Notes: a model not told the origin generated them from the sequence alone. Positions 2,161-43,469 are shown, numbered from the stretch's first letter. The stretch is 64,000 nt of DNA from Gemmatimonadota bacterium (GCA_031402225.1 JANNSD010000023.1:11612-75611); one strand, 5' to 3'. Numbers and translations: made by a program.

Positions 2161-2163
2161 ACT

Positions 2164-4058: not shown

Positions 4059-4073
4059 CCGGCCATTCGCCGC

Positions 4074-6638: not shown

Positions 6639-6668
6639 CCAACCAGTCACCTGGATATCTCATAGCAC

Positions 6669-7127: not shown

Positions 7128-7147
7128 AAGGCCCCATCTCCCGCTTC

Positions 7148-7525
7148 ATGTCGCCCGGCCGGTCCGGGCTCGCATCGCTCCTGATCCTCGTGGCCCTGCT
7201 GCCAGCCTGTACGATCGAGGATCGCGCACCGACCGGGAGCCGGAAGGATCAGGCGGAGATCCAGCGGCTCATCTATGCCTATCACCGTTCCGCCAGCGTC
7301 GATCCGTCCGGGGATCCGAGCCCCGGCGCCATGCGCGTGACCCGGATCGACCTTCGACAGGAGGGCGACCTGGCGGCGGCATGGGTGACGGCCCGGCTTG
7401 CGGGGTCCGATGACGGTGAGGTGCTGGAGCATTTCGTCCTGCGGCGGAGCGGCACAGAGTGGCGCGTGGTGAACGTGGGCGTCGCCGCGGTGCGTCCGGC
7501 GGGCCCACGGCGCGCCTCGCCGTGA
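7148..7525 (+). CDS. Small putative lipoprotein (possibly NTF2/SnoaL-like), coupled to the downstream kinase
   Basis: Internal ATG 7148 of ORF 6818..7525 gives MSPGRSGLASLLILVALLPAC (signal plus lipobox-like LPAC). The upstream part of the track ORF overlaps the peroxiredoxin gene out of frame. The stop TGA (7523-7525) overlaps a GTG (7522) in the kinase frame. Confidence 0.55.
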   Translation: MSPGRSGLASLLILVALLPACTIEDRAPTGSRKDQAEIQRLIYAYHRSASVDPSGDPSPGAMRVTRIDLRQEGDLAAAWVTARLAGSDDGEVLEHFVLRRSGTEWRVVNVGVAAVRPAGPRRASP

Positions 7526-9060: not shown

Positions 9061-9725
9061 AGATCCTGGCGATCGAGGACGACCACACCGTCGGCCAGTA
9101 CGTGAAGCGCGGGCTCGAGGAACAGCGCTTTCACGTGGACCTCGCCGTGGACGGGCTCGAGGGCCTGCGCCTGGCGTCCGGTGGGCAGTATGACCTCATC
9201 ATTCTCGACCTGCGCCTGCCGGAAATGTCCGGCCTCGAGGTGCTCCGCAACCTCCGCGATCGCGGACTCACGGTGCCGATCCTGGTCCTGACGGCCCAGG
9301 ATTCCGTCGACTTCAAGGTGCAGGCGCTGCGCACCGGCGCCGATGACTACGTCACCAAGCCCTTCTCGTTCGAGGAACTGCTGGCCCGGGTGGAGGCGCT
9401 GGGCCGGCGGCCGCAGCAGCTCCGCAGCCCGGTGTTCCGCGTGCTGGACCTCGAGCTGGACACCGCGACCCATGAGGCTCGGCGCGGCACCGAGCCCATC
9501 GAGCTTACGCCGAAGGAGTACACGGTGCTCGAATACCTGATGCGCCATGCCGGGCGCGTCATGTCCCGCACGCTCATCACGGAGTATGCCTGGGACTACC
9601 ACTTCGATCCCGGCACCAACATCGTCGACGTCGTGATCAACCGGCTGCGCAAGAAGATCGACTCCGGCCACGCGCGAAAGCTCATCCACACCGTGCGCGG
9701 GGTGGGGTACACGGTGAAGGGCTGA
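9057..9725 (+). CDS. OmpR/PhoB-family response regulator
   Basis: ATG 9057 overlaps the kinase stop (ATGA). MKILAIEDDH..., YDLIILDLRLPEMSG, LTAQD, GADDYVTKPF, then a winged helix (LTPKEYTVLEYLM, IVDVVINRLRKKI, IHTVRGVGY). The track ORF 8322..9725 carries an out-of-frame N-terminal shadow. Confidence 0.9.
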   Translation: MKILAIEDDHTVGQYVKRGLEEQRFHVDLAVDGLEGLRLASGGQYDLIILDLRLPEMSGLEVLRNLRDRGLTVPILVLTAQDSVDFKVQALRTGADDYVTKPFSFEELLARVEALGRRPQQLRSPVFRVLDLELDTATHEARRGTEPIELTPKEYTVLEYLMRHAGRVMSRTLITEYAWDYHFDPGTNIVDVVINRLRKKIDSGHARKLIHTVRGVGYTVKG

Positions 9726-9726
9726 C

Positions 9727-11190: not shown

Positions 11191-11207
11191 CAGCGACACT
11201 CTCAATG

Positions 11208-11255
11208 GTCACCCCGCGTCACCACCTGTAATTCAGTCGTCACCGATTTGTCATC
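11208..11255. promoter_or_regulatory. Four helically phased GTCAYC repeats upstream of tonB-exbBD; candidate response-regulator binding array
   Basis: GTCACC at 11208, 11218 and 11239, and GTCATC at 11250 (spacings 10, 21 and 11 bp). The distal pair CGTCACCGATTTGTCATC resembles a Pho-box-type arrangement of two direct repeats 11 bp apart. Function is inferred. Confidence 0.3.
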
Positions 11256-11333
11256 CCGCCCCCAGCACCAAGCCATTTCCGAGCGGTATGCTCCCCTGCA
11301 CTCGTTGACCATCATTGAGCGAGGAGGGCGGTA

Positions 11334-12038
11334 GTGTTCGAGAACCTGATCGAATCGTCCAACAAGGGCTCGAAGTCGTTGGGGCAGTCGATCCTGTCGG
11401 TGATCATTCACGGCCTGGTGATCTTCGCGGCCGTTGCGGCCACGAAGGGTGCCGCCGAGGAGATCAAGCAGCGGGTCATCGATACGACGCTCGTCTTCCT
11501 CAAGCCACCGGAGCCCAACCAGCCGCCGCCACCCCCGCCGCCACAGGATGTGGTGGTGTCGGCGAATCCGCCGCCCAAGGGGTTCCAGACGATCATCCCG
11601 CCGGACATCATTCCGAAGGACATTCCTCCGATCGACTTGAACGCGAAGCCGTTCGATCCGAAGGATTTCTCCGGCAAGGGCGTCGAGGGTGGCATCGCGA
11701 CCGGTATCGAGGGTGGCACCGGTCCGGTGGAACTGGGCCAGGTCTTCCTGACCTCGCAGCTGGATGATCCGGCGCAGCGCATTTCCGGACCGCCGCCGCG
11801 CTACCCGCCCGTCATGGCGAGCGCCGGCATCGCCGGGTCGGTGGACCTGCAGTTCATCATCGACACGACCGGGCACGTCGAGCCCGGCTCGCTCAAGGTG
11901 CTGGCGAAGACGCACGATGCCTTTGTGGAGCCGGCCAAGGAGGCCATCCAGAAGAGCATCTACAAGCCGGCGCGCTACAAGGGTGAGCCGGTGCGGCAGC
12001 AGGTGCAGCAGCGCGTGTCGTTTACGAGCCCGAATTGA
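11334..12038 (+). CDS. tonB: TonB-family energy transducer
   Basis: 234-aa ORF (GTG start). It has an N-terminal anchor ILSVIIHGLVIFAAVAA, a Pro-rich spacer PPEPNQPPPPPPPQ, and a C-terminal TonB_C-like domain (YPPVMASAGIAGSVDLQFIIDTTGHV...YKPARYKGEPV). Confidence 0.8.
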   Translation: MFENLIESSNKGSKSLGQSILSVIIHGLVIFAAVAATKGAAEEIKQRVIDTTLVFLKPPEPNQPPPPPPPQDVVVSANPPPKGFQTIIPPDIIPKDIPPIDLNAKPFDPKDFSGKGVEGGIATGIEGGTGPVELGQVFLTSQLDDPAQRISGPPPRYPPVMASAGIAGSVDLQFIIDTTGHVEPGSLKVLAKTHDAFVEPAKEAIQKSIYKPARYKGEPVRQQVQQRVSFTSPN

Positions 12039-19192: not shown

Positions 19193-20944
19193 TCACGGTT
19201 TGGCGGGCAGCGCCGGGACCATGAGACCCGCACCCAGCGGAATTCCAGGCGGAATCGGCACCGGCGTGCGGCCGGAGATGGCCGCGCCGGTGAGGGCGCC
19301 GGCAACCGCCCATTCGGTATTGGCATTGGACGCCCATCCCAGCAGGACGGTGCCCAGCCCTGGCACCTGCGCGCCCACGTACGGCGAGCCCAGCGAGACG
19401 AACACCGTGGGGCGCGTGCGCGCGGTGCTGTCCACCAGTCGGGCAAGCAGGTCGGGCATGCCGATCGTGCCGCGTCCGGCAAAGGCGCGGATCGCCACGG
19501 CAACGATCGCCACCGGTGCGGTGGCAAGCACGGTGCGCGCCGAGTCGTAGCTCGCGGGCCCGCTGGCCGGCGACAGCCGAAACATCGCGATCGTGTCGCC
19601 GCGGGCGCGCAGCTCGCTCAGCAGCGTGGTGCCCGCCGTGGGGTTCAGCTCATCACCGTAGACGATGACACCGCGGCTGCCACGCTGGCGCCTGACACCG
19701 TCGAGCGCCCCGTCGCGGTCACTCAGCAGCACCACCGAACGGGATGCTACCGCGCGCGCGGTATCGCGGAAGGCGGCGTTGCCGACGATGTCCATGACGT
19801 GGTCGAGTGGCACGGTGCGATGCTGGAACAGCCCGACCTTCGCCTTCATCTGCAGCACCCGCCGCACCGAGCGCTCCAGGCGGGCCTGGGTGAAGCGTCC
19901 CTGCTGCAGCGCGGCGGTCATGGCGTCGATGAGGACAGCCGGGTCGGCGGGCTGCAACAGGATGTCCGCCCCGGCGAGGAAGGCGAGTACGCCCGCCTCG
20001 CCGGCCCCGTATCCCGCCAGGAGGCCGCCCATGTTGAGTGCGTCGGTGACGATGACGCCCCTGAAGTGCAGCGAATCGCGCAGCACGCCCGTCAGTATGG
20101 AGGGCACCAGCGTGGCCGGGGTGGGGGAACCGGTGTCGAGCGCGGGCAGGGCCATGTGCGCTGACATCACCGCGGCCACACCCGACTCGATGGCACTGCG
20201 GAACGGCACCAGTTCCACGGTGTCGAGGCGCGACCACGGCACATTCAGCAGCGGCAGTGCCAGGTGCGAGTCGATTTCGACATCGCCGTGACCCGGGAAG
20301 TGCTTCGCGGTCGCCAGCATCCCGTGCTGCTGCAGGCCCTGTATCTCCGCCGACACGAACCGGGCCACCGCGCGCGGGTCCGCGCCGAACGAACGCGTGT
20401 TGATGATGGGGTTGGCCGGGTTGCTGTTCACGTCGGCGACCGGGGCGAGGGCGACGTGGATGCCCACCGCGCGACCCTCCAGCGCCGTGATGCGGCCCAT
20501 GGCGTACGCGTCCCCGTCCCGTCCGGTCGCTCCGATGCCCATATTGCTGGGGAAGGTGGTGCCGCCCGTCAGCCGCAGGGCGGTGCCCGCCTCGAGGTCC
20601 GATGCGATGAGAAGCGGCACGCGCGCTCGCCGCTGCAGGCTATTCAGCTTGGCGGCAATATCGAGCGGCGACCCGATCGACACGAGCAGCCCGCCGACGC
20701 GGAGGGAGTCGACCCACCCGATGATTTTCGCGAGCGCGGGATCATCGTCCGCCAGGTAGGTGCCGGCGATCCAGGGCATCACCAGTTGCGCGATCTGCTC
20801 GCGCGGCGTCATCCGGGCGAGCACTCGTTCCACCTGACCGCTCCGCCCGCCAGCGGTAGACTGGCTCGCGCACGGCGCCACGATCAGCGACAGGCAGGCC
20901 GCCACCAACAGGGGTACGGAGGAACGATGCGTCAGTGGCGCCAT
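19193..20944 (-). CDS. Secreted glycoside hydrolase family 3 (beta-N-acetylhexosaminidase/NagZ-like, with extra C-terminal domain)
   Basis: C-terminal 583 codons of track ORF 19193..22180, from ATG 20944. Signal-like MAPLTHRSSVPLLVAACLSLIVAPCASQ. GH3 motifs KHFPGHGDVEIDSH and RGVIVTDALNMGG. The upstream 412 codons of the track ORF are antisense to the DUF1343 gene. Confidence 0.85.
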   Translation of the reverse strand: MAPLTHRSSVPLLVAACLSLIVAPCASQSTAGGRSGQVERVLARMTPREQIAQLVMPWIAGTYLADDDPALAKIIGWVDSLRVGGLLVSIGSPLDIAAKLNSLQRRARVPLLIASDLEAGTALRLTGGTTFPSNMGIGATGRDGDAYAMGRITALEGRAVGIHVALAPVADVNSNPANPIINTRSFGADPRAVARFVSAEIQGLQQHGMLATAKHFPGHGDVEIDSHLALPLLNVPWSRLDTVELVPFRSAIESGVAAVMSAHMALPALDTGSPTPATLVPSILTGVLRDSLHFRGVIVTDALNMGGLLAGYGAGEAGVLAFLAGADILLQPADPAVLIDAMTAALQQGRFTQARLERSVRRVLQMKAKVGLFQHRTVPLDHVMDIVGNAAFRDTARAVASRSVVLLSDRDGALDGVRRQRGSRGVIVYGDELNPTAGTTLLSELRARGDTIAMFRLSPASGPASYDSARTVLATAPVAIVAVAIRAFAGRGTIGMPDLLARLVDSTARTRPTVFVSLGSPYVGAQVPGLGTVLLGWASNANTEWAVAGALTGAAISGRTPVPIPPGIPLGAGLMVPALPAKP

Positions 20945-22156
20945 GCCTTGGGTCTTTCGCTCGCGGGTCTGCTGGGATGGGGGTGCGTCGCGGCACAGGC
21001 GCCACCGGCCGCTGCCGTCGTCCGCCCCGGTATCGACGTGCTGGTCGAGGACAGCCTGCACCTGGTTGCCGGTCGCGCCGTTGGACTGCTTACCAACCAC
21101 ACTGGCGTGGACCGGCGCGGCATCTCCGATGGCGAGCGGCTGCGTGCCGCCGGGGTCAACGTCGTCGCACTCTTCACCCCGGAGCACGGCCTCCGCGGGG
21201 CCGCCGATCCCGGCGCCGCCGTGGCCTCGACCCGGGATCCCACCACCGGGATTCCAATCTACAGTCTCTACGGACCGAGCCTCGCGCCCACGCCGGCGAT
21301 GCTCACCGGGGTGCAGGTGGTCCTGGTGGACCTGCAGGATGTGGGCGCGCGCTACTTCACCTACATCTCGACCACCATCGAACTGATGCGAGCGGCGGCG
21401 GTCGCGGGCATCCCCGTTATCGTGCTCGATCGCCCGAACCCGGTTGGCGGTGCCGTGCAGGGCAACGTGCTCGACAGCGCCACCCGGTCGTTTGTTGGCA
21501 GCCTCTCGGTGCCGATGCGGCACGGACTGACACTGGGTGAACTCGCGTTGCTGGCGAAGCGCGAGCGTGGGCTCGCCACCGCACTCAGCGTGGTGCCGGT
21601 CTCGGGGTGGCAACGATGGCAGTACTTCGACGACACCGGGGTGCCGTTCGTGCCGCCGAGTCCCAACCTGCGTGACCTCGAAGGCCTGATCCACTATTCC
21701 GGCACCTGCCTCTTCGAGGGTACCAACCTGTCGTCGGGTCGCGGAAGCGATGCCGCGTTCTCTCAAGTGGGCGCGCTGTGGCTCGACCCCTTGGCGGTGC
21801 TGGCGCGGCTGGGGCCCGAGGCCGGGGTGACCCTGTCCCCAACCACCTTCACCCCCCGCCAGCCCGGCGACGGGAAGTACGCCGACACCCTGCTGCAGGG
21901 AATCCGGCTCCGGGTCACAGACCGTGCCATCTACGACCCCCCGGCCACGGCGCTCCGGCTCCTGGTCGCCATCCGGGCGGCGCACCCCGCTGAATTCGCC
22001 TGGATTGCCGCTCATTTCGACCGACTCGCCGGCCAGCCGGGGCTTCGAGAGGCGCTGGAACGCGGAGCTCCGATCGACTCGATCCTGAAGGCCTGGGCAG
22101 GGCAGCGCGCGGCCTTTGAGCCTCGGGCGGCCGGGATCCGCCTCTACCCGCAATAG
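20927..22156 (+). CDS. DUF1343-family protein (exo-beta-N-acetylmuramidase NamZ-like), secreted
   Basis: ATG 20927 within ORF 20264..22156, preceded by GGAGGA (20918-20923). Signal-like MRQWRHALGLSLAGLLGWGCVAAQA, then GLLTNHTGVD, FTPEHGLRG, VLVDLQDVGARYFTYISTT, VLDRPNP, PSPNL. This matches my recollection of DUF1343. Confidence 0.8.
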   Translation: MRQWRHALGLSLAGLLGWGCVAAQAPPAAAVVRPGIDVLVEDSLHLVAGRAVGLLTNHTGVDRRGISDGERLRAAGVNVVALFTPEHGLRGAADPGAAVASTRDPTTGIPIYSLYGPSLAPTPAMLTGVQVVLVDLQDVGARYFTYISTTIELMRAAAVAGIPVIVLDRPNPVGGAVQGNVLDSATRSFVGSLSVPMRHGLTLGELALLAKRERGLATALSVVPVSGWQRWQYFDDTGVPFVPPSPNLRDLEGLIHYSGTCLFEGTNLSSGRGSDAAFSQVGALWLDPLAVLARLGPEAGVTLSPTTFTPRQPGDGKYADTLLQGIRLRVTDRAIYDPPATALRLLVAIRAAHPAEFAWIAAHFDRLAGQPGLREALERGAPIDSILKAWAGQRAAFEPRAAGIRLYPQ

Positions 22157-22260
22157 GCCCTCGCCCATTTGCCCCTGCACGTTCCGGCCGTTATCCTTGG
22201 CCCCGTGCCGAAGGTGAATAATGACACAGAGATCCGGTCCCTTGCCCGAGGGCAGGGAGG

Positions 22261-22905
22261 GTGAAGGCGCTGAAGGCGCTGGAGCGGCCTTTTTTCGCCG
22301 TATTCCGGCCGCTCGTCGACTGGTTGATAGCGCACCGGGTGCATCCCAACACCATCACCACTGTTGGTACGGCGCTCGTGCTCGCCTCGGCGGTTTTCTT
22401 CGGGGCGGGCCACGTGCGACTGGGAGGGCTCTTTTACCTGCTCAGTGGCATCGTGGACACGATCGATGGACAGGTGGCGCGTAACGGTGCGATGGCCACC
22501 CGGTTCGGGGCGTTCTATGACTCAACGCTCGACCGGATCGGGGATGGTGCCATCTTCGCGGGCGTGGGCACCTACCTGATGTTTGCGCCCGGCGTGGCCT
22601 ACCGGGAGCTCAGTGTCATCGTCTGCATGGTGGGGATCATCGCGTCGCTGGTCGTGTCGTACGCGCGCGCGCGCGCTGAAGGGCTGGGCCTGGAGTGCAA
22701 GGTCGGTATAGCCCAGCGGGCCGAGCGCATCCTGCTGCTGGGCATCCCGCCGCTGCTGTTCGGGGCGGGTCCGGGCGGCATCTACCTGCAAGTCATCGTC
22801 GTCCTGCTGACCGCGCTGGGGCTCATCACCGTTGTCCAGCGCATCGTGTATGTGCACGGTGCGGCCAACGCCGCGGATCTGGCCGGGCTGCAGGACCGGG
22901 AGTAG
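22261..22905 (+). CDS. CDP-alcohol phosphatidyltransferase (candidate phosphatidylinositol-phosphate synthase)
   Basis: 214-aa ORF (GTG start) with the family motif D-x2-DG-x2-AR-x8-G-x3-D-x3-D, read as DTIDGQVARNGAMATRFGAFYDSTLDRIGD, plus about 6 hydrophobic segments. Substrate assignment rests on the adjacent MIPS gene. Confidence 0.85.
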   Translation: MKALKALERPFFAVFRPLVDWLIAHRVHPNTITTVGTALVLASAVFFGAGHVRLGGLFYLLSGIVDTIDGQVARNGAMATRFGAFYDSTLDRIGDGAIFAGVGTYLMFAPGVAYRELSVIVCMVGIIASLVVSYARARAEGLGLECKVGIAQRAERILLLGIPPLLFGAGPGGIYLQVIVVLLTALGLITVVQRIVYVHGAANAADLAGLQDRE

Positions 22906-22939
22906 GCCGGTCCGTCACACCAGCGGAAAGGAAGCACGC

Positions 22940-24268
22940 GTGGCAGACAAGGGCGCACGGTCGATCGCGAAGGCCGAGGGCAGGCTCGGAGTGCTCACGG
23001 TCGGACTCGGGGCGGTCGCAACGACGTTCATCGCCGGCGTGGAGCTGGCGCGGCGGGGCATTGCGAAGCCGTACGGCTCGCTGACGCAGCTCGCCACCAT
23101 CCGCCTGGGCAAGCGCACCGACGGGCGCACGCCGCTCATTCGCGATTTCGTGCCGCTGGCGTCGCTCGACGATCTCGTCTTCGGCGCCTGGGACCCAATT
23201 CCGGACAACGCCCACGAGGCCGCCCTCAAGTGTGGCGTGCTCGACAAGCATGAGCATGTGGCACCGATCGCCGACTTCCTGAAGGCCATCACGCCCATGC
23301 CCGCGGTGTTCGACCGGAGCTACGTCAAGCGACTCGAGGGCACCAACGTCAAGGGCGGGAAGACCAAGCGGGAGCAGGCGGAGGCGCTGCGGCAGGACAT
23401 CCGGGCCTTCAAGGCGAAGCACAACTGCAGCCGGCTCGTCATCGTCTGGTGCGCGTCCACCGAGATCTTCATCGCCCCGGGGGCGGCCCACCAGACCGTC
23501 GCGGCGCTGGAGAAGGCCATGGAGACAAACGACGCCACCATCGCGCCCTCGATGCTGTATGCCTGGGCCGCCATGATGGAGGGCGTGGCGTTCATGAACG
23601 GCGCGCCCAACCTCTGCTGCGACATTCCCGCCATTGAGCAGATGGCCCGTGACCGGAAGGTCCCGATCGGCGGCAAGGACTTCAAGACCGGCCAGACGAT
23701 GCTCAAGACGGTGCTGGCACCGATGTTCAAGGCGCGCATGCTCGGGGTGGCCGGCTGGTACTCCACCAACATCCTCGGCAATCGCGACGGCGAGGTCCTG
23801 GACGATCCCGAGAGCTTCAAGACGAAGGAAGAGTCGAAGCTCGGCGTGCTCGAGTACATCCTGCAGCCGCAGGTCTATCCCGAGCTGTACGGCAACATCT
23901 TTCACAAGGTGCGGATCAACTACTATCCGCCGCGGGGCGACAACAAGGAAGGCTGGGACAACATCGACATCTTCGGGTGGCTCGGCTACCCGATGCAGAT
24001 CAAGGTCGATTTCCTCTGCCGTGACTCCATCCTGGCCGCACCGCTGGTGCTCGACCTCGCCCTTTTCTCCGACCTGGCCCAGCGCGCCGGGATGTCGGGG
24101 GTGCAGGAGTGGCTCTCGTTCTACTTCAAGAGCCCGCAAGTGGCGCCGGGGCTGTACCCGGAGCATGACCTCTTCATCCAGCAGACCAAGCTCAAGAACA
24201 CGCTGCGGTGGATGATGGGCGAGGAACAGATCACTCACCTGGGCGTGGAGTACTACGGGGAAGCGTGA
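22940..24268 (+). CDS. ino1: myo-Inositol-1-phosphate (inositol-3-phosphate) synthase
   Basis: GTG 22940, preceded by GGAAAGGAAG, within ORF 22832..24268. Rossmann start LGVLTVGLGAVATTFIAG, then FMNGAPN, GKDFKTGQTMLKTVLAPMF, GWYSTNILGNRDG, and INYYPPRGDNKEGWDNIDI. This is the bacterial/archaeal MIPS pattern. Confidence 0.88.
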   Translation: MADKGARSIAKAEGRLGVLTVGLGAVATTFIAGVELARRGIAKPYGSLTQLATIRLGKRTDGRTPLIRDFVPLASLDDLVFGAWDPIPDNAHEAALKCGVLDKHEHVAPIADFLKAITPMPAVFDRSYVKRLEGTNVKGGKTKREQAEALRQDIRAFKAKHNCSRLVIVWCASTEIFIAPGAAHQTVAALEKAMETNDATIAPSMLYAWAAMMEGVAFMNGAPNLCCDIPAIEQMARDRKVPIGGKDFKTGQTMLKTVLAPMFKARMLGVAGWYSTNILGNRDGEVLDDPESFKTKEESKLGVLEYILQPQVYPELYGNIFHKVRINYYPPRGDNKEGWDNIDIFGWLGYPMQIKVDFLCRDSILAAPLVLDLALFSDLAQRAGMSGVQEWLSFYFKSPQVAPGLYPEHDLFIQQTKLKNTLRWMMGEEQITHLGVEYYGEA

Positions 24269-24290: not shown

Positions 24291-24581
24291 ATGAAGTATT
24301 TCCATCGGACCCACCAGGCGCCGGCCCTCGTGCTGGCGCAGTCAGCGGAGTTTTTCGGCGGACGCCTCGCGCCCACCGAGGAAGCGCCGAGCCGTCGCCG
24401 GTTCGGCGGTGCCATCGGGCATGTGAGCATCACGGCCGCCGCCGAGGGCGGGCATTACACCCTGGTCACGGTCGAGACGGACCAGCCGGGGGAGAGTGAA
24501 GTTGATCGTTTGGCCAAGCGGTTCCTTACACTGGTGCACGCGGCGACCGATCCCGGTCATGTCGTGCGCGGCGCCTACTAG
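24291..24581 (+). CDS. Hypothetical 96-aa protein
   Basis: ORF with coding-like codon bias between MIPS and the pyrophosphatase. No motif recognised (MKYFHRTHQAPALVLAQSAEFFGG...). Confidence 0.4.
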   Translation: MKYFHRTHQAPALVLAQSAEFFGGRLAPTEEAPSRRRFGGAIGHVSITAAAEGGHYTLVTVETDQPGESEVDRLAKRFLTLVHAATDPGHVVRGAY

Positions 24582-24606
24582 TTCCGACAACCCAGGAGAT
24601 GCCAAG

Positions 24607-27045
<2,439 letters not shown>

Positions 27046-33284: not shown

Positions 33285-33563
33285 TTGGAACGTTACGTGC
33301 CACGACGGATCATCGATGTGCGGGGCGAACGGTGGGAAGTCGCCGTGAACGGCGCCCGCACCCAGTCGACCAAGGATGAGTTCGGTCTTCGCTTCGTGCG
33401 GATTGCCGGGGGTCCTCCGGAGACGCGCTTCGCGCGCTACACACCGCTGGGCAGCAAGGCGCGCGAGAGTTCCCTCGCCACGCTGGGCGATGCCGACCTG
33501 GCGCGGTTCCTTACCCATTCGCAACCGGCGTGGACCGCGCCGGAGTCCGGGTACCACCGCTGA
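33285..33563 (+). CDS. Hypothetical 92-aa protein
   Basis: The ORF begins (TTG) immediately after the previous stop; an alternative GTG lies at 33297. No motif recognised. Its 3' end overlaps the PHP gene start by 34 nt. Confidence 0.35.
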   Translation: MERYVPRRIIDVRGERWEVAVNGARTQSTKDEFGLRFVRIAGGPPETRFARYTPLGSKARESSLATLGDADLARFLTHSQPAWTAPESGYHR

Positions 33564-34429
33564 CCGCCCCGGCAGAAGTCGGCGCCACCGGGCCCCTCGC
33601 TGACCTGCACATGCACTCGACGGCCTCCGACGGCTCCCTGGCCCCGGAGCACGTCATCGCGCGCGCCGCGGCTGCCGGGCTGGCCGCGGTCGCGCTGACC
33701 GATCACGATACCGTCGCCGGCGTACCCGCCGCCCTCGCGGCGGGGCAGAAGCTCGGTCTCCGGGTGGTCTCCGGCTGTGAGTTCTCGGTGCTGGCGCCAT
33801 GGGGCGAGATGCACGTGCTGGGGTATTTCCTCCCGGAAGGCGCGCCCGAACTCGAGGAGTTCCTCGCGCGCTGTCGCGCGGACCGGAACCGGCGCGGCAT
33901 GGAGATGGTGCGCCTGCTGCAGCAGCTTGGCGTGGCCATCGACGAGGACGCGGTACTGGCCGAGTCGGCCGGCGGCGCGCTCGGCCGCCCACATGTGGCC
34001 CGGGCGCTCCGGAAGGCAGGTGTCGTGCGCACACTCGACGAGGCGTTCGATCGCTTTCTTGGCCGTGGCCGGCCCGCCTTCGTGGACAAGTCGCTGCCGA
34101 CGTTTGCCAGCGTGGCGTCGCTGGTGCATCGGCTGGGCGGCGTGGTGTCCGCGGCGCACCTCAAGGATCGCGGTAATCGGGCGACCCTCGTGCGCCTCCG
34201 GGCGGAGGGCCTCGACGCCGTGGAGACCCGGCACCCGAGTCACGACGCCGATACCCGCGCCCGTCTCACTGACCTGGTGCTCGCGCTCGGACTCGGCCGC
34301 AGCGGCGGCAGCGACTGGCATGGCGAGGCGGAAGACGGATGGAACCACGGGGCGCTGGGCTCACAGCAGGTGCCGCTCGACTGGGTGGACCAGCTGGAGG
34401 CCCTGCGGCCCGCCATGACGAGGAGTTGA
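33530..34429 (+). CDS. PHP-domain phosphoesterase (TrpH/YciV-like)
   Basis: 299-aa ORF (GTG start): ADLHMHSTASDGS, LTDHDTVAG, GCEFS, EMHVLGY, GRPHVARAL, SAAH, ETRHPSH, GGSDWHG. This is the PHP metal-ligand series. Confidence 0.8.
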   Translation: MDRAGVRVPPLTAPAEVGATGPLADLHMHSTASDGSLAPEHVIARAAAAGLAAVALTDHDTVAGVPAALAAGQKLGLRVVSGCEFSVLAPWGEMHVLGYFLPEGAPELEEFLARCRADRNRRGMEMVRLLQQLGVAIDEDAVLAESAGGALGRPHVARALRKAGVVRTLDEAFDRFLGRGRPAFVDKSLPTFASVASLVHRLGGVVSAAHLKDRGNRATLVRLRAEGLDAVETRHPSHDADTRARLTDLVLALGLGRSGGSDWHGEAEDGWNHGALGSQQVPLDWVDQLEALRPAMTRS

Positions 34430-34432
34430 GCG

Positions 34433-35155
34433 ATGTTGACCTTCGACTACCGCGGCAAGGTCGTCATCGTGACCGGCGTGGGCCGGCCCGGCCAGATCGG
34501 GCACGCCGTGGCGATGGCGTTTGCCCGATCCGGCGCCCAACTGGTGCTGTGTGACGTGAATGCGACGGGTGTGGCGGAGCGCGCGAAGGAATTCCAGGCG
34601 CTCGGACTGGATGCCCGTCCGGCGGCCGGCGACCTCACCGAGCCGGACGTTGCCCGGCTCGCGGTCGAGACGGCGGTAAGGCACTATGGGCGCCTGGATG
34701 CCGTCATCAACATCGCGGGCGGGCTCACCACCTTTGGCCCGATTGACGGCCTCACGGTCAAGGCGTTCGATCGCGAGATCGGGATCAACCTCAAGACTGC
34801 GGTCGTGATGTCGCAGGCGGCCATCGATGAACTGGCGAAGTCCCACGGTTCGATCGTCAACGTCGCATCCATCGCCAGTTTCCAGCCGCAGGCCAGCATG
34901 GCGGTCTACGCGGCGGCCAAGGCCGGCGTGGCCGCGTTCACCCGCAGCCTCGCCGTCGAGTTGCAACCGCGTTTCGTGCGCGTCAACGCCATCGCACCGG
35001 CGATGGTACGCACCCCCGAGAACCTGGGCAGCGCCGGCGCCGATGCCACGTATGTCGAGATGGACCACATCACCCAGGCGGTGATGTTCCTGGCCAGTGC
35101 CGCGGCCGAGGCCATCAACGGGCTGGTGCTGCCGATTTCGCGAGGCGTCGTCTAG
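34433..35155 (+). CDS. Short-chain dehydrogenase/reductase (SDR)
   Basis: 240-aa ORF with a TGVGRPGQIG glycine-rich loop, NIAGG, and the catalytic YAAAKAGV (Y-x3-K). Confidence 0.85.
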   Translation: MLTFDYRGKVVIVTGVGRPGQIGHAVAMAFARSGAQLVLCDVNATGVAERAKEFQALGLDARPAAGDLTEPDVARLAVETAVRHYGRLDAVINIAGGLTTFGPIDGLTVKAFDREIGINLKTAVVMSQAAIDELAKSHGSIVNVASIASFQPQASMAVYAAAKAGVAAFTRSLAVELQPRFVRVNAIAPAMVRTPENLGSAGADATYVEMDHITQAVMFLASAAAEAINGLVLPISRGVV

Positions 35156-35157
35156 TC

Positions 35158-35889
35158 ATGGAACTGGCCGGCCGCGTTGCCCTGGTGACGGGCGCGGGGC
35201 GGCGGCTCGGGCGCGCGTTCGCCGAGGCACTCGCCGGGCGCGGCATGACAATGGCGCTCCATTACAACGCATCGCGCGATGGCGCCGAGTCGCTGCGCGC
35301 CGACATCGTGGTGCGCGGTGGCCGGGCCCTCTGCTTCCAGTCCGATCTCGCCGATGCCGAGTCCGCGCGCGCGCTGCCTGGTCGGGTCGCGGCGGAGTTC
35401 GGGCAGCTCGATGTCCTGGTCAATTCCGCCGCCGTCATGCATCACATCGGGTTCGAGGACACGACGCCCGACCTGTACGACCAGGTCCTCAACCTGAACC
35501 TCCGATCCCTCTTCTTCGTGTCGCAGGGCGCAGCCCCGTTCCTCCGCCGGGCCCGCGGCAAGATCGTGAACCTGGCCGACCTGGGCGGGCTCGAGCCGTG
35601 GCCGGGATACGCTGCGCATTCCGTCAGCAAGGCTGGGGTGGTCATGCTCACCCGGGTGCTGGCCCGCAGCCTTGCCCCCGAGGTGACGGTGAACGCCATC
35701 GCACCGGGGGCCGTGCTCGTGCCGGACGACTATTCCGACGCTGAGCGGACCCGCCTGGCGGACTCGACGCCGCTCCGGCGCCTGGGACAGCCGGACGATG
35801 CCGTCCAGGCGCTCCTGTACCTGCTGGAGCACGCCGACTTCGTGACGGGCGACGTGCTGGTCGTCGACGGCGGGCGGGTCCTGAGGTAG
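35158..35889 (+). CDS. Short-chain dehydrogenase/reductase (SDR, pteridine-reductase-like pattern)
   Basis: 243-aa ORF: VTGAGRRLG, NSAAV, YAAHSVSKAGV (Y-x3-K, shifted pattern), PGAV. Confidence 0.85.
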   Translation: MELAGRVALVTGAGRRLGRAFAEALAGRGMTMALHYNASRDGAESLRADIVVRGGRALCFQSDLADAESARALPGRVAAEFGQLDVLVNSAAVMHHIGFEDTTPDLYDQVLNLNLRSLFFVSQGAAPFLRRARGKIVNLADLGGLEPWPGYAAHSVSKAGVVMLTRVLARSLAPEVTVNAIAPGAVLVPDDYSDAERTRLADSTPLRRLGQPDDAVQALLYLLEHADFVTGDVLVVDGGRVLR

Positions 35890-35924
35890 CGCTATATTCC
35901 ACGCGGGCCTTTCGGGAGTGTTGC

Positions 35925-36902
35925 ATGGCAGGTCGAGAGCAATATGAAGTTGTCATTGTCGGCGGCGGGCCCGCTGGGCTCTGCGCCGCCATGTATGGCG
36001 GGCGCGGCATGCTCCGCACCGTGCTGCTGGAGCGTGGTGTGCCCGGCGGCGAACTGCTGAATACCGAGTGGATCGAGGACTATCCCGGTTTTCTCAAGGT
36101 GAAGGGCCGCGAGCTGGCCGACCTCATGACCCAGCACGCGCTGCAGTTCGGCGCCGAGATCCGGCAGGAGAACGCGGAGCACATCGTACGCCGTCCGGAC
36201 GGCATGTTCGAGGTCACCACGTCGCTGGGGACGATCTTCGAGGCGCCGGCGGTCATTATCACGGCGGGCGGGACGCCGCTCAAGCTGGAGGTCCCTGGCG
36301 AGCTGGAATACGCCGGGCGGGGTGTGTCCTACTGCGCGGTCTGCGACGGGGCGTTCTTCAAGGGCGAAACGATCGTGGTGATCGGTGGTGGCGACGCTGC
36401 CGTGGAGGAAGCCGACTACCTGACGCGTTATGCCGAGAAGGTGTACCTCATCCACCGGCGGAGCGAGCTCCGCGCGTCGAAGATCCTGCAGGAGCGGCTC
36501 TTCCGGAACCCGAAGATCGAGGTGGTCTGGAACAAGCGGGTCCTGGAACTGTTCGGCGACCCGTCCGGCCTCAAGACGGTCGCCCTGGAGGATACGGAGA
36601 CCGGTCTGCTCTCCGAGCTCAAGGCGACGGGCTGCTTCGTGTTCATCGGCTTCCGCCCGAACTCCGGGATCGTGCAGGGGCACTTCGCCCATGACGCCAA
36701 CGGCTACATGATCACCGACGACCGCATGATGACCTCCATTCCGGGGCTCTTCGCCGCCGGTGATCTCCGGGTGCAGCTCACCCGGCAGGTCACGACCGCG
36801 GTGGGCGATGCGACCACGGCCGCGATCGCCGTCGAGAAATACCTCACGGAGCGCCGCCAGTTGGCGGTCGGGGCAGGGGCGGGGGCCCACGCTGGTGTCT
36901 GA
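35925..36902 (+). CDS. trxB: Thioredoxin-disulfide reductase
   Basis: 325-aa ORF: VVIVGGGPAG, the redox-active GVSYCAVCDG, GGGDAAVEEADYL, and GLFAAGD. Confidence 0.92.
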   Translation: MAGREQYEVVIVGGGPAGLCAAMYGGRGMLRTVLLERGVPGGELLNTEWIEDYPGFLKVKGRELADLMTQHALQFGAEIRQENAEHIVRRPDGMFEVTTSLGTIFEAPAVIITAGGTPLKLEVPGELEYAGRGVSYCAVCDGAFFKGETIVVIGGGDAAVEEADYLTRYAEKVYLIHRRSELRASKILQERLFRNPKIEVVWNKRVLELFGDPSGLKTVALEDTETGLLSELKATGCFVFIGFRPNSGIVQGHFAHDANGYMITDDRMMTSIPGLFAAGDLRVQLTRQVTTAVGDATTAAIAVEKYLTERRQLAVGAGAGAHAGV

Positions 36903-37542
36903 GCTGGTGGTGCGGAAATTCACCAACGGGCGCTTCGCCCAGAACAGCTACCTGCTGGGCGACCAGCAATCGCGGGTCGCCGCGCTCGTCGATCCGGGCG
37001 AGGATCCGTCGGGCCTGCTCGCCGAGGTCACGCGTGGTGGATGGCGCGTCGAGGCCATCTGGCTGACGCACGCGCACATCGATCACGTCCTTGGCGTGCC
37101 GCAAGCGAGGCGGCTCACCTCGGCGCCGGTGCTCCTGCATGGCGACGATTTACCCCTGTACGCCAACGTGCCCCAGCAGGCCACCGCGATGGGCTTCAGC
37201 GCGACCGCGTTGCCGGCGCCGGATGGCGACCTGACGGAGGGCCAGTCGCTGGCGGTGGGGCCACACCGCTTCGTGGTGCGTCACACCCCGGGACATTCGC
37301 CGGGCAGCGTGAGCTTCGTGGGCCCCGGGCTGGTGCTTGCCGGCGACGTGCTGTTCAGCGGCTCGATTGGCCGTACCGACCTTCCGGGCGGCAACTTCTT
37401 CACGCTGATGCGCAGCATCCACGCGCACCTCCTGGCCCTCCCCGATGACACCGTGCTCTACGCCGGTCACGGCGACGATTCCACCATCGGAATCGAGCGT
37501 GCCACGAACCCCTTCATTACCGGCGAGGTTCGCGCCGGATGA
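36895..37542 (+). CDS. MBL-fold metallo-hydrolase (hydroxyacylglutathione-hydrolase-like)
   Basis: GTG 36895 (8-nt overlap with the trxB stop) within ORF 36760..37542. THAHIDHVLG (H-x-H-x-DH), HTPGHSPGS, GDVLFSGSIGRTD, GHG. Confidence 0.85.
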   Translation: MSELVVRKFTNGRFAQNSYLLGDQQSRVAALVDPGEDPSGLLAEVTRGGWRVEAIWLTHAHIDHVLGVPQARRLTSAPVLLHGDDLPLYANVPQQATAMGFSATALPAPDGDLTEGQSLAVGPHRFVVRHTPGHSPGSVSFVGPGLVLAGDVLFSGSIGRTDLPGGNFFTLMRSIHAHLLALPDDTVLYAGHGDDSTIGIERATNPFITGEVRAG

Positions 37543-37561: not shown

Positions 37562-38815
37562 ATGACATCCGGCGCGCTCGTCGATCAGCAGATTTTCTCA
37601 TTGGCGGCGAGCACGCCGCTCGACATTGCAGGTTCTCCCCTCCCGCCACCGCTCCGGCCCGCCAGTACGCTCGGCGTGCTGGACATCTCCGAGTACGTCG
37701 GGGAGTTCACCGGGGGCGTGCGCACCTACCTGGCGGCAAAGGCCCGCTATGTGTCCCGGCGGCCGCACCTTCGGCAGGTGTTGCTCATTCCCGGGGCCCA
37801 GGATGCCATTGTGGAGTCCGATGGCGTCCGCTGCTACCGCCTGCGCGGACCGGCAATCCCCTTCAATCCTGCCTATCGCTTCATGCTGGCGACCCGGTCG
37901 ACCAGCCGGATCGTGGCACACGAGCGTCCTGACGTGATCGAGGTGGGCAGTGCCTACTTCGCGCCCTGGCTCATTTACCGGGCCCGTCGACAGTATCAGG
38001 CGCCCGTCGTCTGGTTCTACCACGCGAACCTGCCCAGGCTGGTCGCGCCCCGCTGGGAACGCGAGCCGGCGCCGCGCCGCGCCCTCGCGCGCGCCGTCGG
38101 ATGGTATGCGCGGCGGATCGCGGCGGCGGTTGACTGCACCATCGTGGCATCCGAGTTCGCCCGGCGCGACCTCGAACGCATCGGGGTGACCAACGTGGCG
38201 CACGTGCCCCTCGGCGTTGACCTCGAGCTCTTCCATCCGGCGCCCGCGAACCTGGACCCCGCCCGCCGCCAGCGCCTCGGCCTGCCCGACCGTCCGTTTG
38301 CGCTCTATGTCGGGCGCTTTACGTCCGAGAAGCAATCCGGCCGCCTCGTGTCCGAGTGGTCCGAGGTCTATCGTCGCACCGGTGTGACGCTCGTCATGGT
38401 TGGTGACGGGCCCCTTCGACCTCAGCTCGAGGCGCTCGCGGACCCGGGCGTCAGGCTGCTGCCCTACACCCGCGCGCGCGAGACAATCGCCGACCTGCAC
38501 GCCGCCGCCGACTTCTACGTGGCCCCGGGCCCCAACGAGACGTTCGGGCTTGCCGCGCTCGAGGCGCTCGCCAGCGGAACGCCGGTGCTGTCAGTCGATG
38601 AAGGCGGTGTATCGGAGCAGGTCACGCGTTCGGGTGCGGGATTCCTCTATCATGCCGACGAACCGGGCGCGATCCTGCGTGGCGTCGAGGCGATGATGGG
38701 TGCGGATCGCGCGGCCCTCGGCCGCCTCGGGCGCACGCACGCCGAGCGCGAGCATAGCTGGGACTGCGTGTTCGATCGCATCTTCGGCGTCTACGAGGGA
38801 CTGCTCGGCCGGTGA
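37562..38815 (+). CDS. GT4-family (GT-B, retaining) glycosyltransferase
   Basis: ATG 37562 within ORF 37445..38815. N-terminal GGVRTYL-type Glyco_trans_4 region. C-terminal YVGRFTSEK, and the E-x7-E motif read as ETFGLAALEALASGTPV. Confidence 0.85.
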   Translation: MTSGALVDQQIFSLAASTPLDIAGSPLPPPLRPASTLGVLDISEYVGEFTGGVRTYLAAKARYVSRRPHLRQVLLIPGAQDAIVESDGVRCYRLRGPAIPFNPAYRFMLATRSTSRIVAHERPDVIEVGSAYFAPWLIYRARRQYQAPVVWFYHANLPRLVAPRWEREPAPRRALARAVGWYARRIAAAVDCTIVASEFARRDLERIGVTNVAHVPLGVDLELFHPAPANLDPARRQRLGLPDRPFALYVGRFTSEKQSGRLVSEWSEVYRRTGVTLVMVGDGPLRPQLEALADPGVRLLPYTRARETIADLHAAADFYVAPGPNETFGLAALEALASGTPVLSVDEGGVSEQVTRSGAGFLYHADEPGAILRGVEAMMGADRAALGRLGRTHAEREHSWDCVFDRIFGVYEGLLGR

Positions 38816-39528
38816 CCCTGCTCGCTTCCATTCACGACGTGGCACCCCCGAACCTCCTCGCGGTCAAGCGCCTCTGGCAGCTCTGCCGGGAGGTCGGCGT
38901 GGTGCCGGCCCTCCTGGTGGTGCCCGACTGGCACGGGAGCGCGCCGATCGAGCATGACGCCGAGTTCATGGCGTGGTTGCGCGGCGCGGTGGCCGACGGC
39001 GCCGAGATCCTCCTGCACGGCGAGCGGCATGACGAAGTCGGGCGGCCGCGAGCACTGGGCGACGCGGTGCGCGCCGTGGGCAGGACCGCGCGGGAGGGCG
39101 AGTGCCTCACGCTCGACGCGCCGGGGCTCGAGGCCCTTGTGGCCCGCGGCCTCGCCCGGTTGCGGGCCCTCGGTCTTTCGGCGCTCGGCTTTGTGCCGCC
39201 CGCGTGGCTGATGCGGGCGGACGCACGACCGGGCATCTTTGCGGCCGGCCTCTCGTTCGCTGAAGATGCGCGCGCGATCTACCTCGCCGCTGGACGCCGC
39301 GTGGCGTCGCCGGCGTTGCGATGGAGCACGCGCACGGCCGTCCGGGCGCGTGCGTCCGTGTCGGTGGCCGACTGGCGCTGGCGCTTCCAGCGGGGTGCAC
39401 CCGTGATGCGCATCGCGCTGCATCCAGGTGACCTGCATCATCCTGCGGTTGCCCGGTCGGTGGTGCGCGCACTGGAGCGCTGGACCGCCGATCGCCACGT
39501 GAAACCGTACGCGTCGCTCATGGCCTGA
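38812..39528 (+). CDS. DUF2334-like protein (glycoside-hydrolase/deacetylase-fold, predicted deacetylase)
   Basis: GTG 38812 overlaps the GT4 stop (GTGA). The N-terminal LLASIHDVAP, LLVVPDWHG, ILLHGERH and GFVPPAW match my recollection of the DUF2334 pattern. The assignment is from memory, not a search. Confidence 0.5.
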   Translation: MTLLASIHDVAPPNLLAVKRLWQLCREVGVVPALLVVPDWHGSAPIEHDAEFMAWLRGAVADGAEILLHGERHDEVGRPRALGDAVRAVGRTAREGECLTLDAPGLEALVARGLARLRALGLSALGFVPPAWLMRADARPGIFAAGLSFAEDARAIYLAAGRRVASPALRWSTRTAVRARASVSVADWRWRFQRGAPVMRIALHPGDLHHPAVARSVVRALERWTADRHVKPYASLMA

Positions 39529-39530
39529 CG

Positions 39531-40409
39531 ATGCACCTCTCTCCGCTGGCGGCGCACGCCATCTGCCTCGCCCTCGTCATCGCCGACCTCGTCGCGCGCA
39601 CGTACCGGCTCCAATGGCTCACGCTCGGCGTCGGTTCGCGACTCACCTTTTCCGAGAGCCTCCGCATCAACGCCTTTGCTGACGCGGGCTCCACCCTCAC
39701 CCCGATGCGCGTCGGCGGAGAGCCGGCGCGACTGGCCGGGATGCTCGCCTGTGGCGTCCCGGCAACCGCCTCGTTCGTGGCCATTGCCTACGAGGTCATT
39801 ACCGCCTGGCCGGTCCTCATCGCGGTTGGCGCGTGGATCTTTCTCGGGTATGCGCCTGAATGGTGGGCCAGCGCCGGGCCGCAACTGACGGCCTCCGTGC
39901 GCAACGCCTGGCCGTGGGCACTCGCCATCGTCCTGGTCAGCGTCGCGGCATGGCTTGGCGCGCGCCGCGTGGCGCACGCCCTGCCGCGCCAGCTCAAGCG
40001 CCCGCTTGGGCGCATTCGCGTCTACTGGCGGCGCATGCCCACCTGGCCGCTCCTCGGGAGCCTGCCGCTGTCCCTGGTGAATGTCGTCACCCGGATCGCG
40101 TTGCTGCCGGTGCTGGCACTCACGCTCCCCGATCCGCCCGCGCTCCCGGTACTCGTGGTCGGCTCATTCGCCCTCATCTATGCGCAACTCATTCTGCCGA
40201 CGCCCGGCGGGGCGGGGGCGGTGGAGTTCGGGTTTCTCGGGGGCGCGGCGGGAGATCTCGGGAATGACGGTTCCCGGTTGCTGCTGGCCTGGCGCATCTA
40301 CGCAAACGGTATCGGCACCGTACTTGGCATCTGGCTGGCCATTCGGCACTATGGCTGGCCGGCAGTGAAGGACGGCGTCGCGAGGACGTTCGGCGCCCGG
40401 CCCGGCTGA
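39531..40409 (+). CDS. Flippase-like membrane protein (LPG_synthase_TM / UPF0104-type domain)
   Basis: 292-aa ORF starting 2 nt after the previous stop, with about 8 hydrophobic segments. It contains TPMRVGGEPARL and the C-terminal LILPTPGGAGAVEFGFLGG (the PGGxG-x-E motif of this family). Confidence 0.6.
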   Translation: MHLSPLAAHAICLALVIADLVARTYRLQWLTLGVGSRLTFSESLRINAFADAGSTLTPMRVGGEPARLAGMLACGVPATASFVAIAYEVITAWPVLIAVGAWIFLGYAPEWWASAGPQLTASVRNAWPWALAIVLVSVAAWLGARRVAHALPRQLKRPLGRIRVYWRRMPTWPLLGSLPLSLVNVVTRIALLPVLALTLPDPPALPVLVVGSFALIYAQLILPTPGGAGAVEFGFLGGAAGDLGNDGSRLLLAWRIYANGIGTVLGIWLAIRHYGWPAVKDGVARTFGARPG

Positions 40410-42780: not shown

Positions 42781-42809
42781 TTCTCGCAACTGCTGCTTTG
42801 GGTATCCAG

Positions 42810-42893
42810 TGCCGAAGGGGGGACTCGAACCCCCACGGGCTTGCGCCCACTGCGCCCTGAACGCAGCGCGTCTACCAGTTCCACCACTCCGGC
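42810..42893 (-). tRNA. tRNA-Leu (anticodon CAG), long variable arm, no encoded CCA
   Basis: Reverse complement GCCGGAGTGGTGGAACTGGTAGACGCGCTGCGTTCAGGGCGCAGTGGGCGCAAGCCCGTGGGGGTTCGAGTCCCCCCTTCGGCA. It has a 7-bp acceptor stem, anticodon stem CTGCG/CGCAG with loop TTCAGGG, a long extra arm, and T-arm GGGGG-TTCGAGT-CCCCC. Confidence 0.9.
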
Positions 42894-42942
42894 GAAGGGC
42901 GGTAAACGTATCACGCAGTGTGAGACGCGGCAAGCAGTTTGG

Positions 42943-42971
42943 TTGACCATGCCGAAGTGGGGGCCTATCCT
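42943..42971 (+). promoter_or_regulatory. Putative sigma70-type promoter of smpB (TTGACC-N17-TATCCT)
   Basis: TTGACC at 42943-42948, a 17-nt spacer, then TATCCT at 42966-42971. The predicted start lies only about 6 nt upstream of ATG 42984, implying a very short leader. Confidence 0.35.
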
Positions 42972-42983
42972 TCACTCGCAACG

Positions 42984-43469
42984 ATGGTTACGCCTTCGAA
43001 GTCCCCCGCGGAAGACAAGCTCTTCGTGGCCCGGAATCCCCGGGCGTCCTACGACTATCACATCCTCGATACCTGGGAGGCGGGCCTCGTCCTGACCGGC
43101 ACCGAGGTGAAGTCGCTGCGGTCCGGCAAGGCGTCCATCAAGGAGGCCTACGGCCGGGTTCGCAACGGGGAAGTGTTCGTGGACGGGCTCAACATTACGC
43201 CGTACGCCCAGGGCGGGCACTACAACCACGACCCGATGCGGACCCGGAAGCTGCTGCTCCATCGCAAGGAGATCGAACGGCTGATCGGGGCAACCGAGCA
43301 GAAGGGCCTCACGCTGGTGCCGCTCGAGCTCTATTTCCGCCGCGGGCGAATCAAGCTGCTCGTGGGGCTTGGACGCGGCAAGAAGCACCACGACCGCCGT
43401 GAAGACGTGAAGAAGCGCATGGCAGAGCGCGACGTCGCCCGCGCCCTGTCCAACCGGAGCCGCGAATGA
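42984..43469 (+). CDS. smpB: SsrA-binding protein
   Basis: ATG 42984 within ORF 42939..43469: ARNPRASYDYHILDTWEAGLVLTGTEVKSLR, FVDGLNITPY, and RTRKLLLHRKEIERL with a C-terminal basic tail. Confidence 0.9.
   Translation: MVTPSKSPAEDKLFVARNPRASYDYHILDTWEAGLVLTGTEVKSLRSGKASIKEAYGRVRNGEVFVDGLNITPYAQGGHYNHDPMRTRKLLLHRKEIERLIGATEQKGLTLVPLELYFRRGRIKLLVGLGRGKKHHDRREDVKKRMAERDVARALSNRSRE

Follow-up and report, generated by a model that had tools for sequence, protein, structure and literature searches.

A GpgS-like and GpgD-like gene pair with a flippase-like partner in Gemmatimonadota points to a probable amino-sugar modification of a membrane phospholipid

Three tightly packed genes at positions 37562-40409 of a 64,000-nucleotide stretch of DNA from a Gemmatimonadota bacterium (GCA_031402225.1, JANNSD010000023.1:11612-75611; the whole stretch, with a G+C content of about 68%, is hereafter termed the window) encode a family 4 glycosyltransferase (GT4), a DUF2334-type deacetylase and a polytopic membrane protein, and raise the question of which lipid they might modify. 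A preliminary description of the window had proposed that the GT4 enzyme adds an N-acetylhexosamine (HexNAc) to a lipid, that the deacetylase unmasks the amine and that the product is translocated, with an inositol phospholipid as the possible acceptor, and it knew of no characterised system with this triad. The general logic of that proposal is supported by the analysis presented here, but a system with the same architecture has been characterised, namely the gpgSDF genes of Pseudomonas aeruginosa. By analogy with it, the triad is probably a divergent Gemmatimonadota relative of gpgSDF dedicated to the amino-sugar modification of a membrane phospholipid, with glucosaminyl-phosphatidylglycerol (GlcN-PG) or a close analogue as the most likely product.

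GlcN-PG has been known as a lipid since the 1960s and, to our knowledge, the genes responsible for it were identified only in 2025, and in P. aeruginosa only. The gpgSDF genes of this species (PA14_56030/40/50, corresponding to PA4311-4313) encode, in this order, a GT4 enzyme, a COG3233/DUF2334 deacetylase and a UPF0104 flippase-like protein, and direct the formation of N-acetylglucosaminyl-phosphatidylglycerol (GlcNAc-PG) and then of GlcN-PG (Khan, Palmer and Guan, J Bacteriol 2025, PMC12713373). Transposon mutants of gpgS and gpgD were studied in that work: the gpgD mutant builds up GlcNAc-PG, complementation with gpgD brings back GlcN-PG, and when Escherichia coli expresses gpgSDF, both lipids are formed (PMC12713373). 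The chemistry of the two enzymatic steps is thereby documented for P. aeruginosa only, and its extension to the window would be by analogy.

The triad consists of three co-directional open reading frames (ORFs) on the plus strand. The glycosyltransferase gene (37562-38815; 417 amino acids, aa) starts at the ATG at 37562, separated by a gap of 19 nt from the stop codon (TGA, 37540-37542) of an upstream gene for a metallo-beta-lactamase (MBL)-fold protein. Its own stop codon overlaps by 4 nt, in the GTGA at 38812-38815, the GTG start of the deacetylase gene (38812-39528; 238 aa), and the stop codon of the latter (TGA, 39526-39528) lies 2 nt (39529-39530) ahead of the ATG (39531) that opens the third gene (39531-40409; 292 aa). 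The overlap and the gap had been described previously, and their coordinates are borne out on the translated ORFs; independent gene calls in public contigs encoding an identical third protein also yield products of 417, 238 and 292 aa. The named closest homologues all belong to the Gemmatimonadota, and are mostly metagenome-assembled genomes of the order Gemmatimonadales.

The glycosyltransferase was assigned through Pfam, NCBIfam, pairwise comparison and hydropathy. It matches both Glyco_transf_4 (72.9 bits) and Glycos_transf_1 (73.4 bits) above their gathering scores and its translation contains an E-x7-E motif (NETFGLAALEA), in agreement with the GT-B/GT4 assignment made initially. Among NCBIfam models, its best match is to NF053787 (GlcN_PG_synth, GpgS), which together with NF053788 (GpgD) and NF053789 (GpgF) was derived from gpgSDF. 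This match reaches 239 bits and spans model positions 3-360 of 361, while the second-best family attains 76 bits. The N-terminal half of GT-B enzymes constitutes the acceptor-binding domain, and in the window protein this domain alone scores 129 bits against NF053787 and 16.6 bits against the next family. As the pairwise reference for gpgSDF we used a locus on a Pseudomonadota contig (L085), not the P. aeruginosa proteins themselves. This locus encodes, in S-D-F order, a GT4 enzyme with 480 bits to GpgS, the deacetylase P0141 (found in Pseudomonadota metagenome bins; 289.7 bits, above the GpgD cut-off) and a PF03706 protein with 264 bits to NF053789. P0141 is one of 927 DUF2334-type clusters retrieved by a full HMMER scan of 1.84 billion representatives. 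The window glycosyltransferase is 33% identical to its L085 counterpart over 379 aa (E 9e-39). Hydropathy analysis of the enzyme identified no signal peptide and no hydrophobic segment, with no stretch attaining a 19-residue Kyte-Doolittle mean of 1.5. The prediction for this enzyme is a soluble or peripheral location and the transfer of a HexNAc unit, presumably from uridine diphosphate N-acetylglucosamine (UDP-GlcNAc), to a membrane phospholipid.

The middle protein was assigned on the basis of Pfam, NCBIfam, structural comparison and invariant residues. It matches DUF2334 (PF10096) with 74.2 bits, above the gathering score, and carries the SIHDVAP and LLHGERHDE motifs in its translation, so that the DUF2334 call based on IHDVAP and LLHGERH is upheld. 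NF053788 (GlcNAc_PG_deac, GpgD) is the sole NCBIfam family that it matches; the alignment covers model positions 3-229 of 241 and scores 143 bits. Its identity to P0141 is 38%. An AlphaFold model built with 20 homologues (pLDDT, the predicted local distance difference test score, 89.8) retrieved Salmonella ArnD (8t0j) as the top Foldseek match in the PDB (E 1.3e-5, TM score 0.62, 17% identity), followed by deacetylases and esterases of carbohydrate esterase family 4 (CE4); the 14 PDB matches with E <= 1e-3 are mostly CE4 enzymes or ArnD. The deacetylase fold that had been anticipated for this protein was thus recovered. It emerged from the fold comparison, given that a profile sequence search against the PDB returned only chance-level matches and that Pfam detected no sequence-level match to PF01522. 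All 20 homologues share residues H8, D9, H69, E71, H73, D74, H204 and D207 without exception, a pattern that fits a metal-dependent NodB-type active site. The fold matches of the model and the Asp and His residues conserved in the sequence agree with the CE4/NodB-fold de-N-acetylases, which have a distorted (beta/alpha) barrel. Hydropathy detected no signal peptide and no hydrophobic segment, and the N-terminus begins directly at the first beta strand. On these grounds the deacetylase should act in the cytoplasm, as has been predicted for GpgD (PMC12713373).

The third protein was characterised through PF03706, hydropathy and structure. It matches LPG_synthase_TM (PF03706) with 59.5 bits against a cut-off of 33.4, and the flippase-like NCBIfam model TIGR00374 with 25.7 bits, under the cut-off of 43.2. 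It is polytopic, with about 6-8 hydrophobic segments by hydropathy. The PGGxG-x-E motif noted at first inspection is present as PTPGGAGAVEF, although its spacing is PGGxGxxE, with two residues ahead of the Glu, and its first Gly is mostly Ser among relatives. A sequence search against the PDB returned nothing for this protein. A fold search with its AlphaFold model (pLDDT 81) produced meaningful matches only to the MprF proteins of P. aeruginosa and Rhizobium, the top four being 9goe, 9j8s, 9j8q and 7duw (query-normalised TM score, TMq, 0.54-0.59; probability 1.00). By its Pfam family and modelled fold, the protein is a member of the UPF0104/YbhN/MprF-flippase superfamily, and flipping is predicted. 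The flippase-like assignment of the preliminary description therefore stands, and all the domain families that it expected from an hmmscan analysis of the triad (Glycos_transf_1 plus Glyco_trans_4, DUF2334 and LPG_synthase_TM) were matched above gathering scores.

The window locus and gpgSDF thus share the same three families in S-D-F order, tightly packed and co-directional, with a soluble glycosyltransferase and deacetylase and a polytopic third protein. Given this identity of families and order, the architecture of the triad can be considered as already characterised. The glycosyltransferase and deacetylase are full-length homologues of GpgS and GpgD, which are their best NCBIfam matches by a wide margin. 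The two systems differ in the host phylum, here Gemmatimonadota, in the scores of the two soluble proteins, which are at about half of the equivalog cut-offs, in a 38-aa N-terminal extension of the window glycosyltransferase, and in the third protein, which falls 40 aa short of its GpgF-like counterpart in L085 and does not match the GpgF model.

Extrapolating from gpgSDF, the GT4 enzyme would work on the cytoplasmic side of the inner membrane, adding an N-acetylhexosamine, presumably GlcNAc from UDP-GlcNAc, to a phospholipid head group. This phospholipid would most probably be phosphatidylglycerol (PG), which has been reported as a major lipid of cultured Gemmatimonadota (PMC11651109); the lipids listed in the literature for this phylum comprise phosphatidylethanolamine, PG, diphosphatidylglycerol and an unidentified 'aminolipid', a list that speaks neither for nor against GlcN-PG. 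The cytoplasmic, metal-dependent CE4-fold DUF2334 enzyme would then strip the N-acetyl group to generate zwitterionic GlcN-PG, and the MprF-flippase-like protein would carry this product to the outer leaflet, which would leave the surface with less net negative charge. This scheme takes donor and acceptor, as well as flipping and physiological role, from the homologous system and projects them onto the Gemmatimonadota host.

To assess the conservation of this arrangement, gene neighbourhoods were counted at 80 Gemmatimonadota genome loci. The glycosyltransferase gene lies directly upstream of the deacetylase gene at 70 of the 73 loci with room for it, a recurrence beyond chance. Metagenome-assembled genomes assigned to Gemmatimonas itself are among those with the pair (L010, L015, L030 and L042). 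A flippase gene lies directly downstream of the deacetylase gene at 36 of 78. The near-constancy of the pair and the variability of the flippase indicate that the pair is the conserved functional unit and the flippase an accessory. Inspection of loci lacking the flippase showed an unrelated gene in that place, as in L018 (pair at 8664-10714), where it encodes an asparaginase. In the Gemmatimonadaceae locus L070 (pair at 8757-10735), the place of the flippase is taken by a second GT4 gene following the deacetylase gene (10672-11895), the product of which has a partial match of 129 bits to the GpgS model and hints at a diglycosylated product. The glycosyltransferases of the L018 and L070 pairs are themselves GpgS-like over their full length, within a range of 190-235 bits to NF053787.

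The association extends beyond this phylum. GpgS-like GT4 enzymes with full-length matches to NF053787 (190-235 bits) accompany DUF2334 proteins in three unrelated lineages, L083 (4857-6753), L088 (2159-4744) and L081 (4992-7045). L081 is a Sphingomonas plasmid in which the glycosyltransferase gene is on the strand opposite to that of the DUF2334 gene. In L088, the DUF2334 gene lies inside a larger cluster (678-8347) that also contains a pair of GT4 genes together with genes for an acetyltransferase-like protein, a phosphodiesterase, a DHQ (3-dehydroquinate)-synthase-like protein and an AP_endonuc_2 (TIM-barrel) protein. This cluster may represent a distinct pathway for an amino sugar or a cyclitol. 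In a plasmid collection, DUF2334 homologues with 31-34% identity were detected in Ralstonia and sphingomonad replicons, without triads, and the homologue of the Ralstonia replicon has no adjacent glycosyltransferase gene.

Several observations weigh against assigning the triad to a GlcN-PG-type pathway. The glycosyltransferase and the deacetylase both fall below the curated equivalog cut-offs (239 versus 480 bits for GpgS; 143 versus 280 bits for GpgD), which makes them distant relatives of these proteins, not equivalogs, and these scores, together with identities of 33-38%, leave room for another acceptor or another sugar. From sequence comparison, the third protein is outside the GpgF subfamily: neither this protein nor 15 of its relatives match NF053789 at E <= 1, BLASTP against the GpgF-like protein of L085 returned an E-value of 0.15, and profile comparison with GpgF through hhalign gave a probability of 31%. 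The flippase role of GpgF is itself only predicted (PMC12713373). The irregular presence of the flippase gene among Gemmatimonadota loci also counts here, as do DUF2334 homologues of similar distance that have no adjacent glycosyltransferase gene (L082, L089 and L091). With contexts this varied, the deacetylase alone does not fix the function. Furthermore, there is no report of GlcN-PG from Gemmatimonadota, for which species descriptions give just the aforementioned aminolipid. The flippase in the clade of the window was probably recruited separately from GpgF.

The window does encode proteins for inositol lipid synthesis, as the preliminary description had stated. Directly adjacent genes at 22261-24268 code for a cytidine diphosphate (CDP)-alcohol phosphatidyltransferase resembling phosphatidylinositol phosphate (PIP) synthase (NF045883, 155 bits versus a cut-off of 170) and for an inositol-1-phosphate synthase, and both are real. 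The ORF of the latter is listed from 22832, and the length of its homologues, about 442 aa, indicates that its true start is probably near 22940. It is found with at least 81% identity in more than 120 protein clusters, of which the named ones are from Gemmatimonadota; the comparison points to the synthesis of inositol phospholipid as a phylum-wide, uncharacterised trait of this group. A GT4 enzyme glycosylating the inositol phospholipid supplied by these two proteins, followed by deacetylation, would generate glucosaminyl-phosphatidylinositol (GlcN-PI) in what would resemble the first two steps of glycosylphosphatidylinositol (GPI) synthesis. Besides the proximity of the two inositol genes to each other, this possibility draws on the conservation of the synthase, whereby inositol lipid is plausibly available wherever the GT4-deacetylase pair occurs, and on the sub-cut-off scores of both enzymes, whose specificity may have shifted.

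We nonetheless regard inositol phospholipid as an improbable acceptor. The acceptor domain of the glycosyltransferase matches only GpgS, and a Pfam scan at E <= 0.1 detected neither the PIGA domain (PF08288) nor LmbE/PIG-L (PF02585) in any of the three proteins, the latter in accordance with the earlier remark that the deacetylase does not belong to the PIG-L/LmbE family. The inositol-linked GT4 enzymes MshA, PimA and PimB match weakly, and only in the C-terminal donor domain, with MshA at 65.6 bits versus a cut-off of 462.5. The homologous gpgSDF system uses PG and functions in E. coli, a species devoid of inositol lipids. In the window, the inositol genes are 13 kb from the triad, with a membrane H+-translocating pyrophosphatase gene (24496-27045; PF03030, 611 bits) and other unrelated genes in between, and tblastn searches of 82 loci, with flanks of up to 10 kb, for the CDP-alcohol transferase and the inositol-1-phosphate synthase yielded no match; none of the 80 related loci carries them within that distance. 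Since the synthase and the pair are both phylum-wide, their co-occurrence cannot discriminate between acceptors. The idea of an inositol-lipid acceptor is not supported. In a more specific form of it, a GpgS/GpgD-like pair would have shifted to inositol phospholipid and produced GlcN-PI with a separately recruited MprF-like flippase. This scenario is, in our estimation, distinctly improbable; if true, GlcN-PI would be a bacterial counterpart of GPI-anchor initiation, generated by enzymes unrelated to the acceptor domain of PIG-A or to PIG-L.

The triad is preceded by a string of co-directional genes (33530-37542) coding for a PHP-domain protein, two short-chain dehydrogenases/reductases (SDRs), one of them pteridine-reductase-like, a thioredoxin reductase and the MBL hydrolase, which is glyoxalase-II-like and has hydroxyacylglutathione hydrolase as its top NCBIfam match (81 bits versus a cut-off of 200.8). 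This arrangement of PHP, SDR, thioredoxin reductase and MBL genes ahead of the triad is kept throughout the clade of the window. Scans for promoters and terminators gave no informative signal, which is expected at 68% G+C and with promoters unlike those of the sigma-70 type. Elsewhere in the window (19193-22180), overlapping long ORFs encode a GH3 (NagZ-like) protein on the minus strand and, on the plus strand, a NamZ exo-beta-N-acetylmuramidase; their Pfam-matched portions do not overlap, and the two genes form a divergent peptidoglycan-recycling pair. A tRNA-Leu(CAG) gene (42809-42893, minus strand), the sole Rfam or ARAGORN match in the 64-kb window, adjoins smpB (42939-43469, plus strand).

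The genes immediately upstream of the triad invite a reading in which the GT4 enzyme and the deacetylase make a soluble glucosamine (GlcN) conjugate, as the core of a bacillithiol- or mycothiol-like thiol linked to the thioredoxin reductase and the glyoxalase-II-like protein. In both BshA/BshB and MshA/MshB a GT4 enzyme acts first and a deacetylase follows, a logic that the window pair shares, and the thioredoxin reductase and MBL genes are maintained directly upstream within its clade. Very little probability attaches to this reading. The BshA and MshA models score 60-66 bits (60.1 for BshA, with a cut-off of 273.7) on the C-terminal domain only, versus 239 bits for GpgS, and the deacetylase is a DUF2334 protein outside the LmbE family. 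Moreover, there is no adjacent cysteine-ligase gene, a lipid flippase-fold gene follows 2 nt downstream, and the pairs of Gemmatimonadaceae occur without thioredoxin reductase and MBL neighbours.

The CE4-like fold of the deacetylase, and the fact that some of its homologues are labelled 'polysaccharide deacetylase family protein' in public records, would also be compatible with an exopolysaccharide module, in which the GT4 enzyme builds a HexNAc polymer that the CE4-like enzyme partly deacetylates, in a manner resembling poly-N-acetylglucosamine or Pel. Known exopolysaccharide deacetylases, however, act outside the cytoplasm, whereas the window enzyme has neither a membrane anchor nor a signal peptide. 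The triad has no adjoining genes for a polymerase, for export or for Wzx/Wzy, and its neighbours are housekeeping genes. The likelihood of such a module appears close to negligible.

By analogy with gpgSDF, the triad would not be a new inositol-lipid system, and would correspond to a diverged version of the pathway reported in 2025. Only a different acceptor would make it biologically new in kind. Its relevance lies in establishing the GpgS-like/GpgD-like pair as a conserved feature of a major, barely cultured soil phylum, and in the occurrence of the same two-gene module, accompanied by differing third genes, outside this phylum; of this module the Pseudomonas instance alone has been characterised. 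Recruitment of a flippase partner probably took place on more than one occasion, and the third gene of the pathway would be interchangeable. The prediction that follows is that Gemmatimonadota make an amino-sugar-modified phospholipid that lowers the charge of the membrane surface, with a putative bearing on tolerance to cationic antimicrobials and on acid or stationary-phase stress. The assignment also provides an annotation for genes currently labelled as 'hypothetical', 'polysaccharide deacetylase' or 'YbhN'.

Comparison with other systems for lipid-linked amino sugars bears on whether the same chemistry might serve a different acceptor, such as a glycosyl-diacylglycerol, cardiolipin or a polyprenyl phosphate carrier, from which the amino sugar would later be handed to lipid A or to another envelope target, following the Arn/Lgm outline. 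The distance of the window sequences from the Pseudomonas family and the affiliation of the third gene to a different flippase subfamily are in line with this alternative, which we deem unlikely overall, with a modest chance of being correct. Its glycolipid version has a precedent in Clostridioides difficile, where hexSDF makes aminohexosyl-hexosyl-diradylglycerol and reduces susceptibility to cationic antibiotics (PMC10128005). HexSDF shows that a synthase-deacetylase-flippase outline, shared with the window, is workable on glycolipids, and HexF is, like the third protein, MprF-flippase-like and devoid of an aminoacylation domain. However, HexS resembles monogalactosyldiacylglycerol (MGDG) synthase, HexD carries the annotation of a classical polysaccharide deacetylase instead of DUF2334 and the acceptor is a glycolipid, whereas the window enzymes are specifically GpgS- and GpgD-like.

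The polyprenyl version finds its model in the ArnC/ArnD/ArnEF pathway for undecaprenyl-phosphate-linked 4-amino-4-deoxy-L-arabinose (L-Ara4N), in which the amine of an N-acylated, lipid-linked sugar is freed on the cytoplasmic side before flipping, a logic that the triad would share. ArnD, which among solved structures is the closest match to the middle protein, has an undecaprenyl-phosphate-linked sugar as its substrate. The resemblance is limited to the fold of this protein. ArnC-type and Lgm-type transferases belong to family GT2, not GT4, and ArnC acts on polyprenyl phosphate; the group taken off by ArnD is a formyl group, and ArnE and ArnF are small proteins of the small multidrug resistance (SMR) type, unlike the PF03706 protein of the window. 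No ArnT-like GT-C transferase gene was found among the neighbours examined.

PIG-A/PIG-L and MshA/MshB also proceed through transfer of GlcNAc by a GT4 enzyme and subsequent de-N-acetylation. They differ from the window proteins in that the latter lack a PIGA domain, match the MshA model (66 bits) in the donor domain only, and rely on a deacetylase that is DUF2334/CE4-like. MprF, which combines an aminoacyl-PG synthase with a flippase, is related to the triad through its third protein. The window encodes no tRNA-dependent aminoacyl-transferase domain as part of the triad, and the amine would instead be provided by a sugar through the action of two separate soluble enzymes. The third protein shares with MprF the fold of the flippase domain and membership in PF03706, and the predicted purpose of both systems is the same, namely masking the charge of PG and flipping the product.

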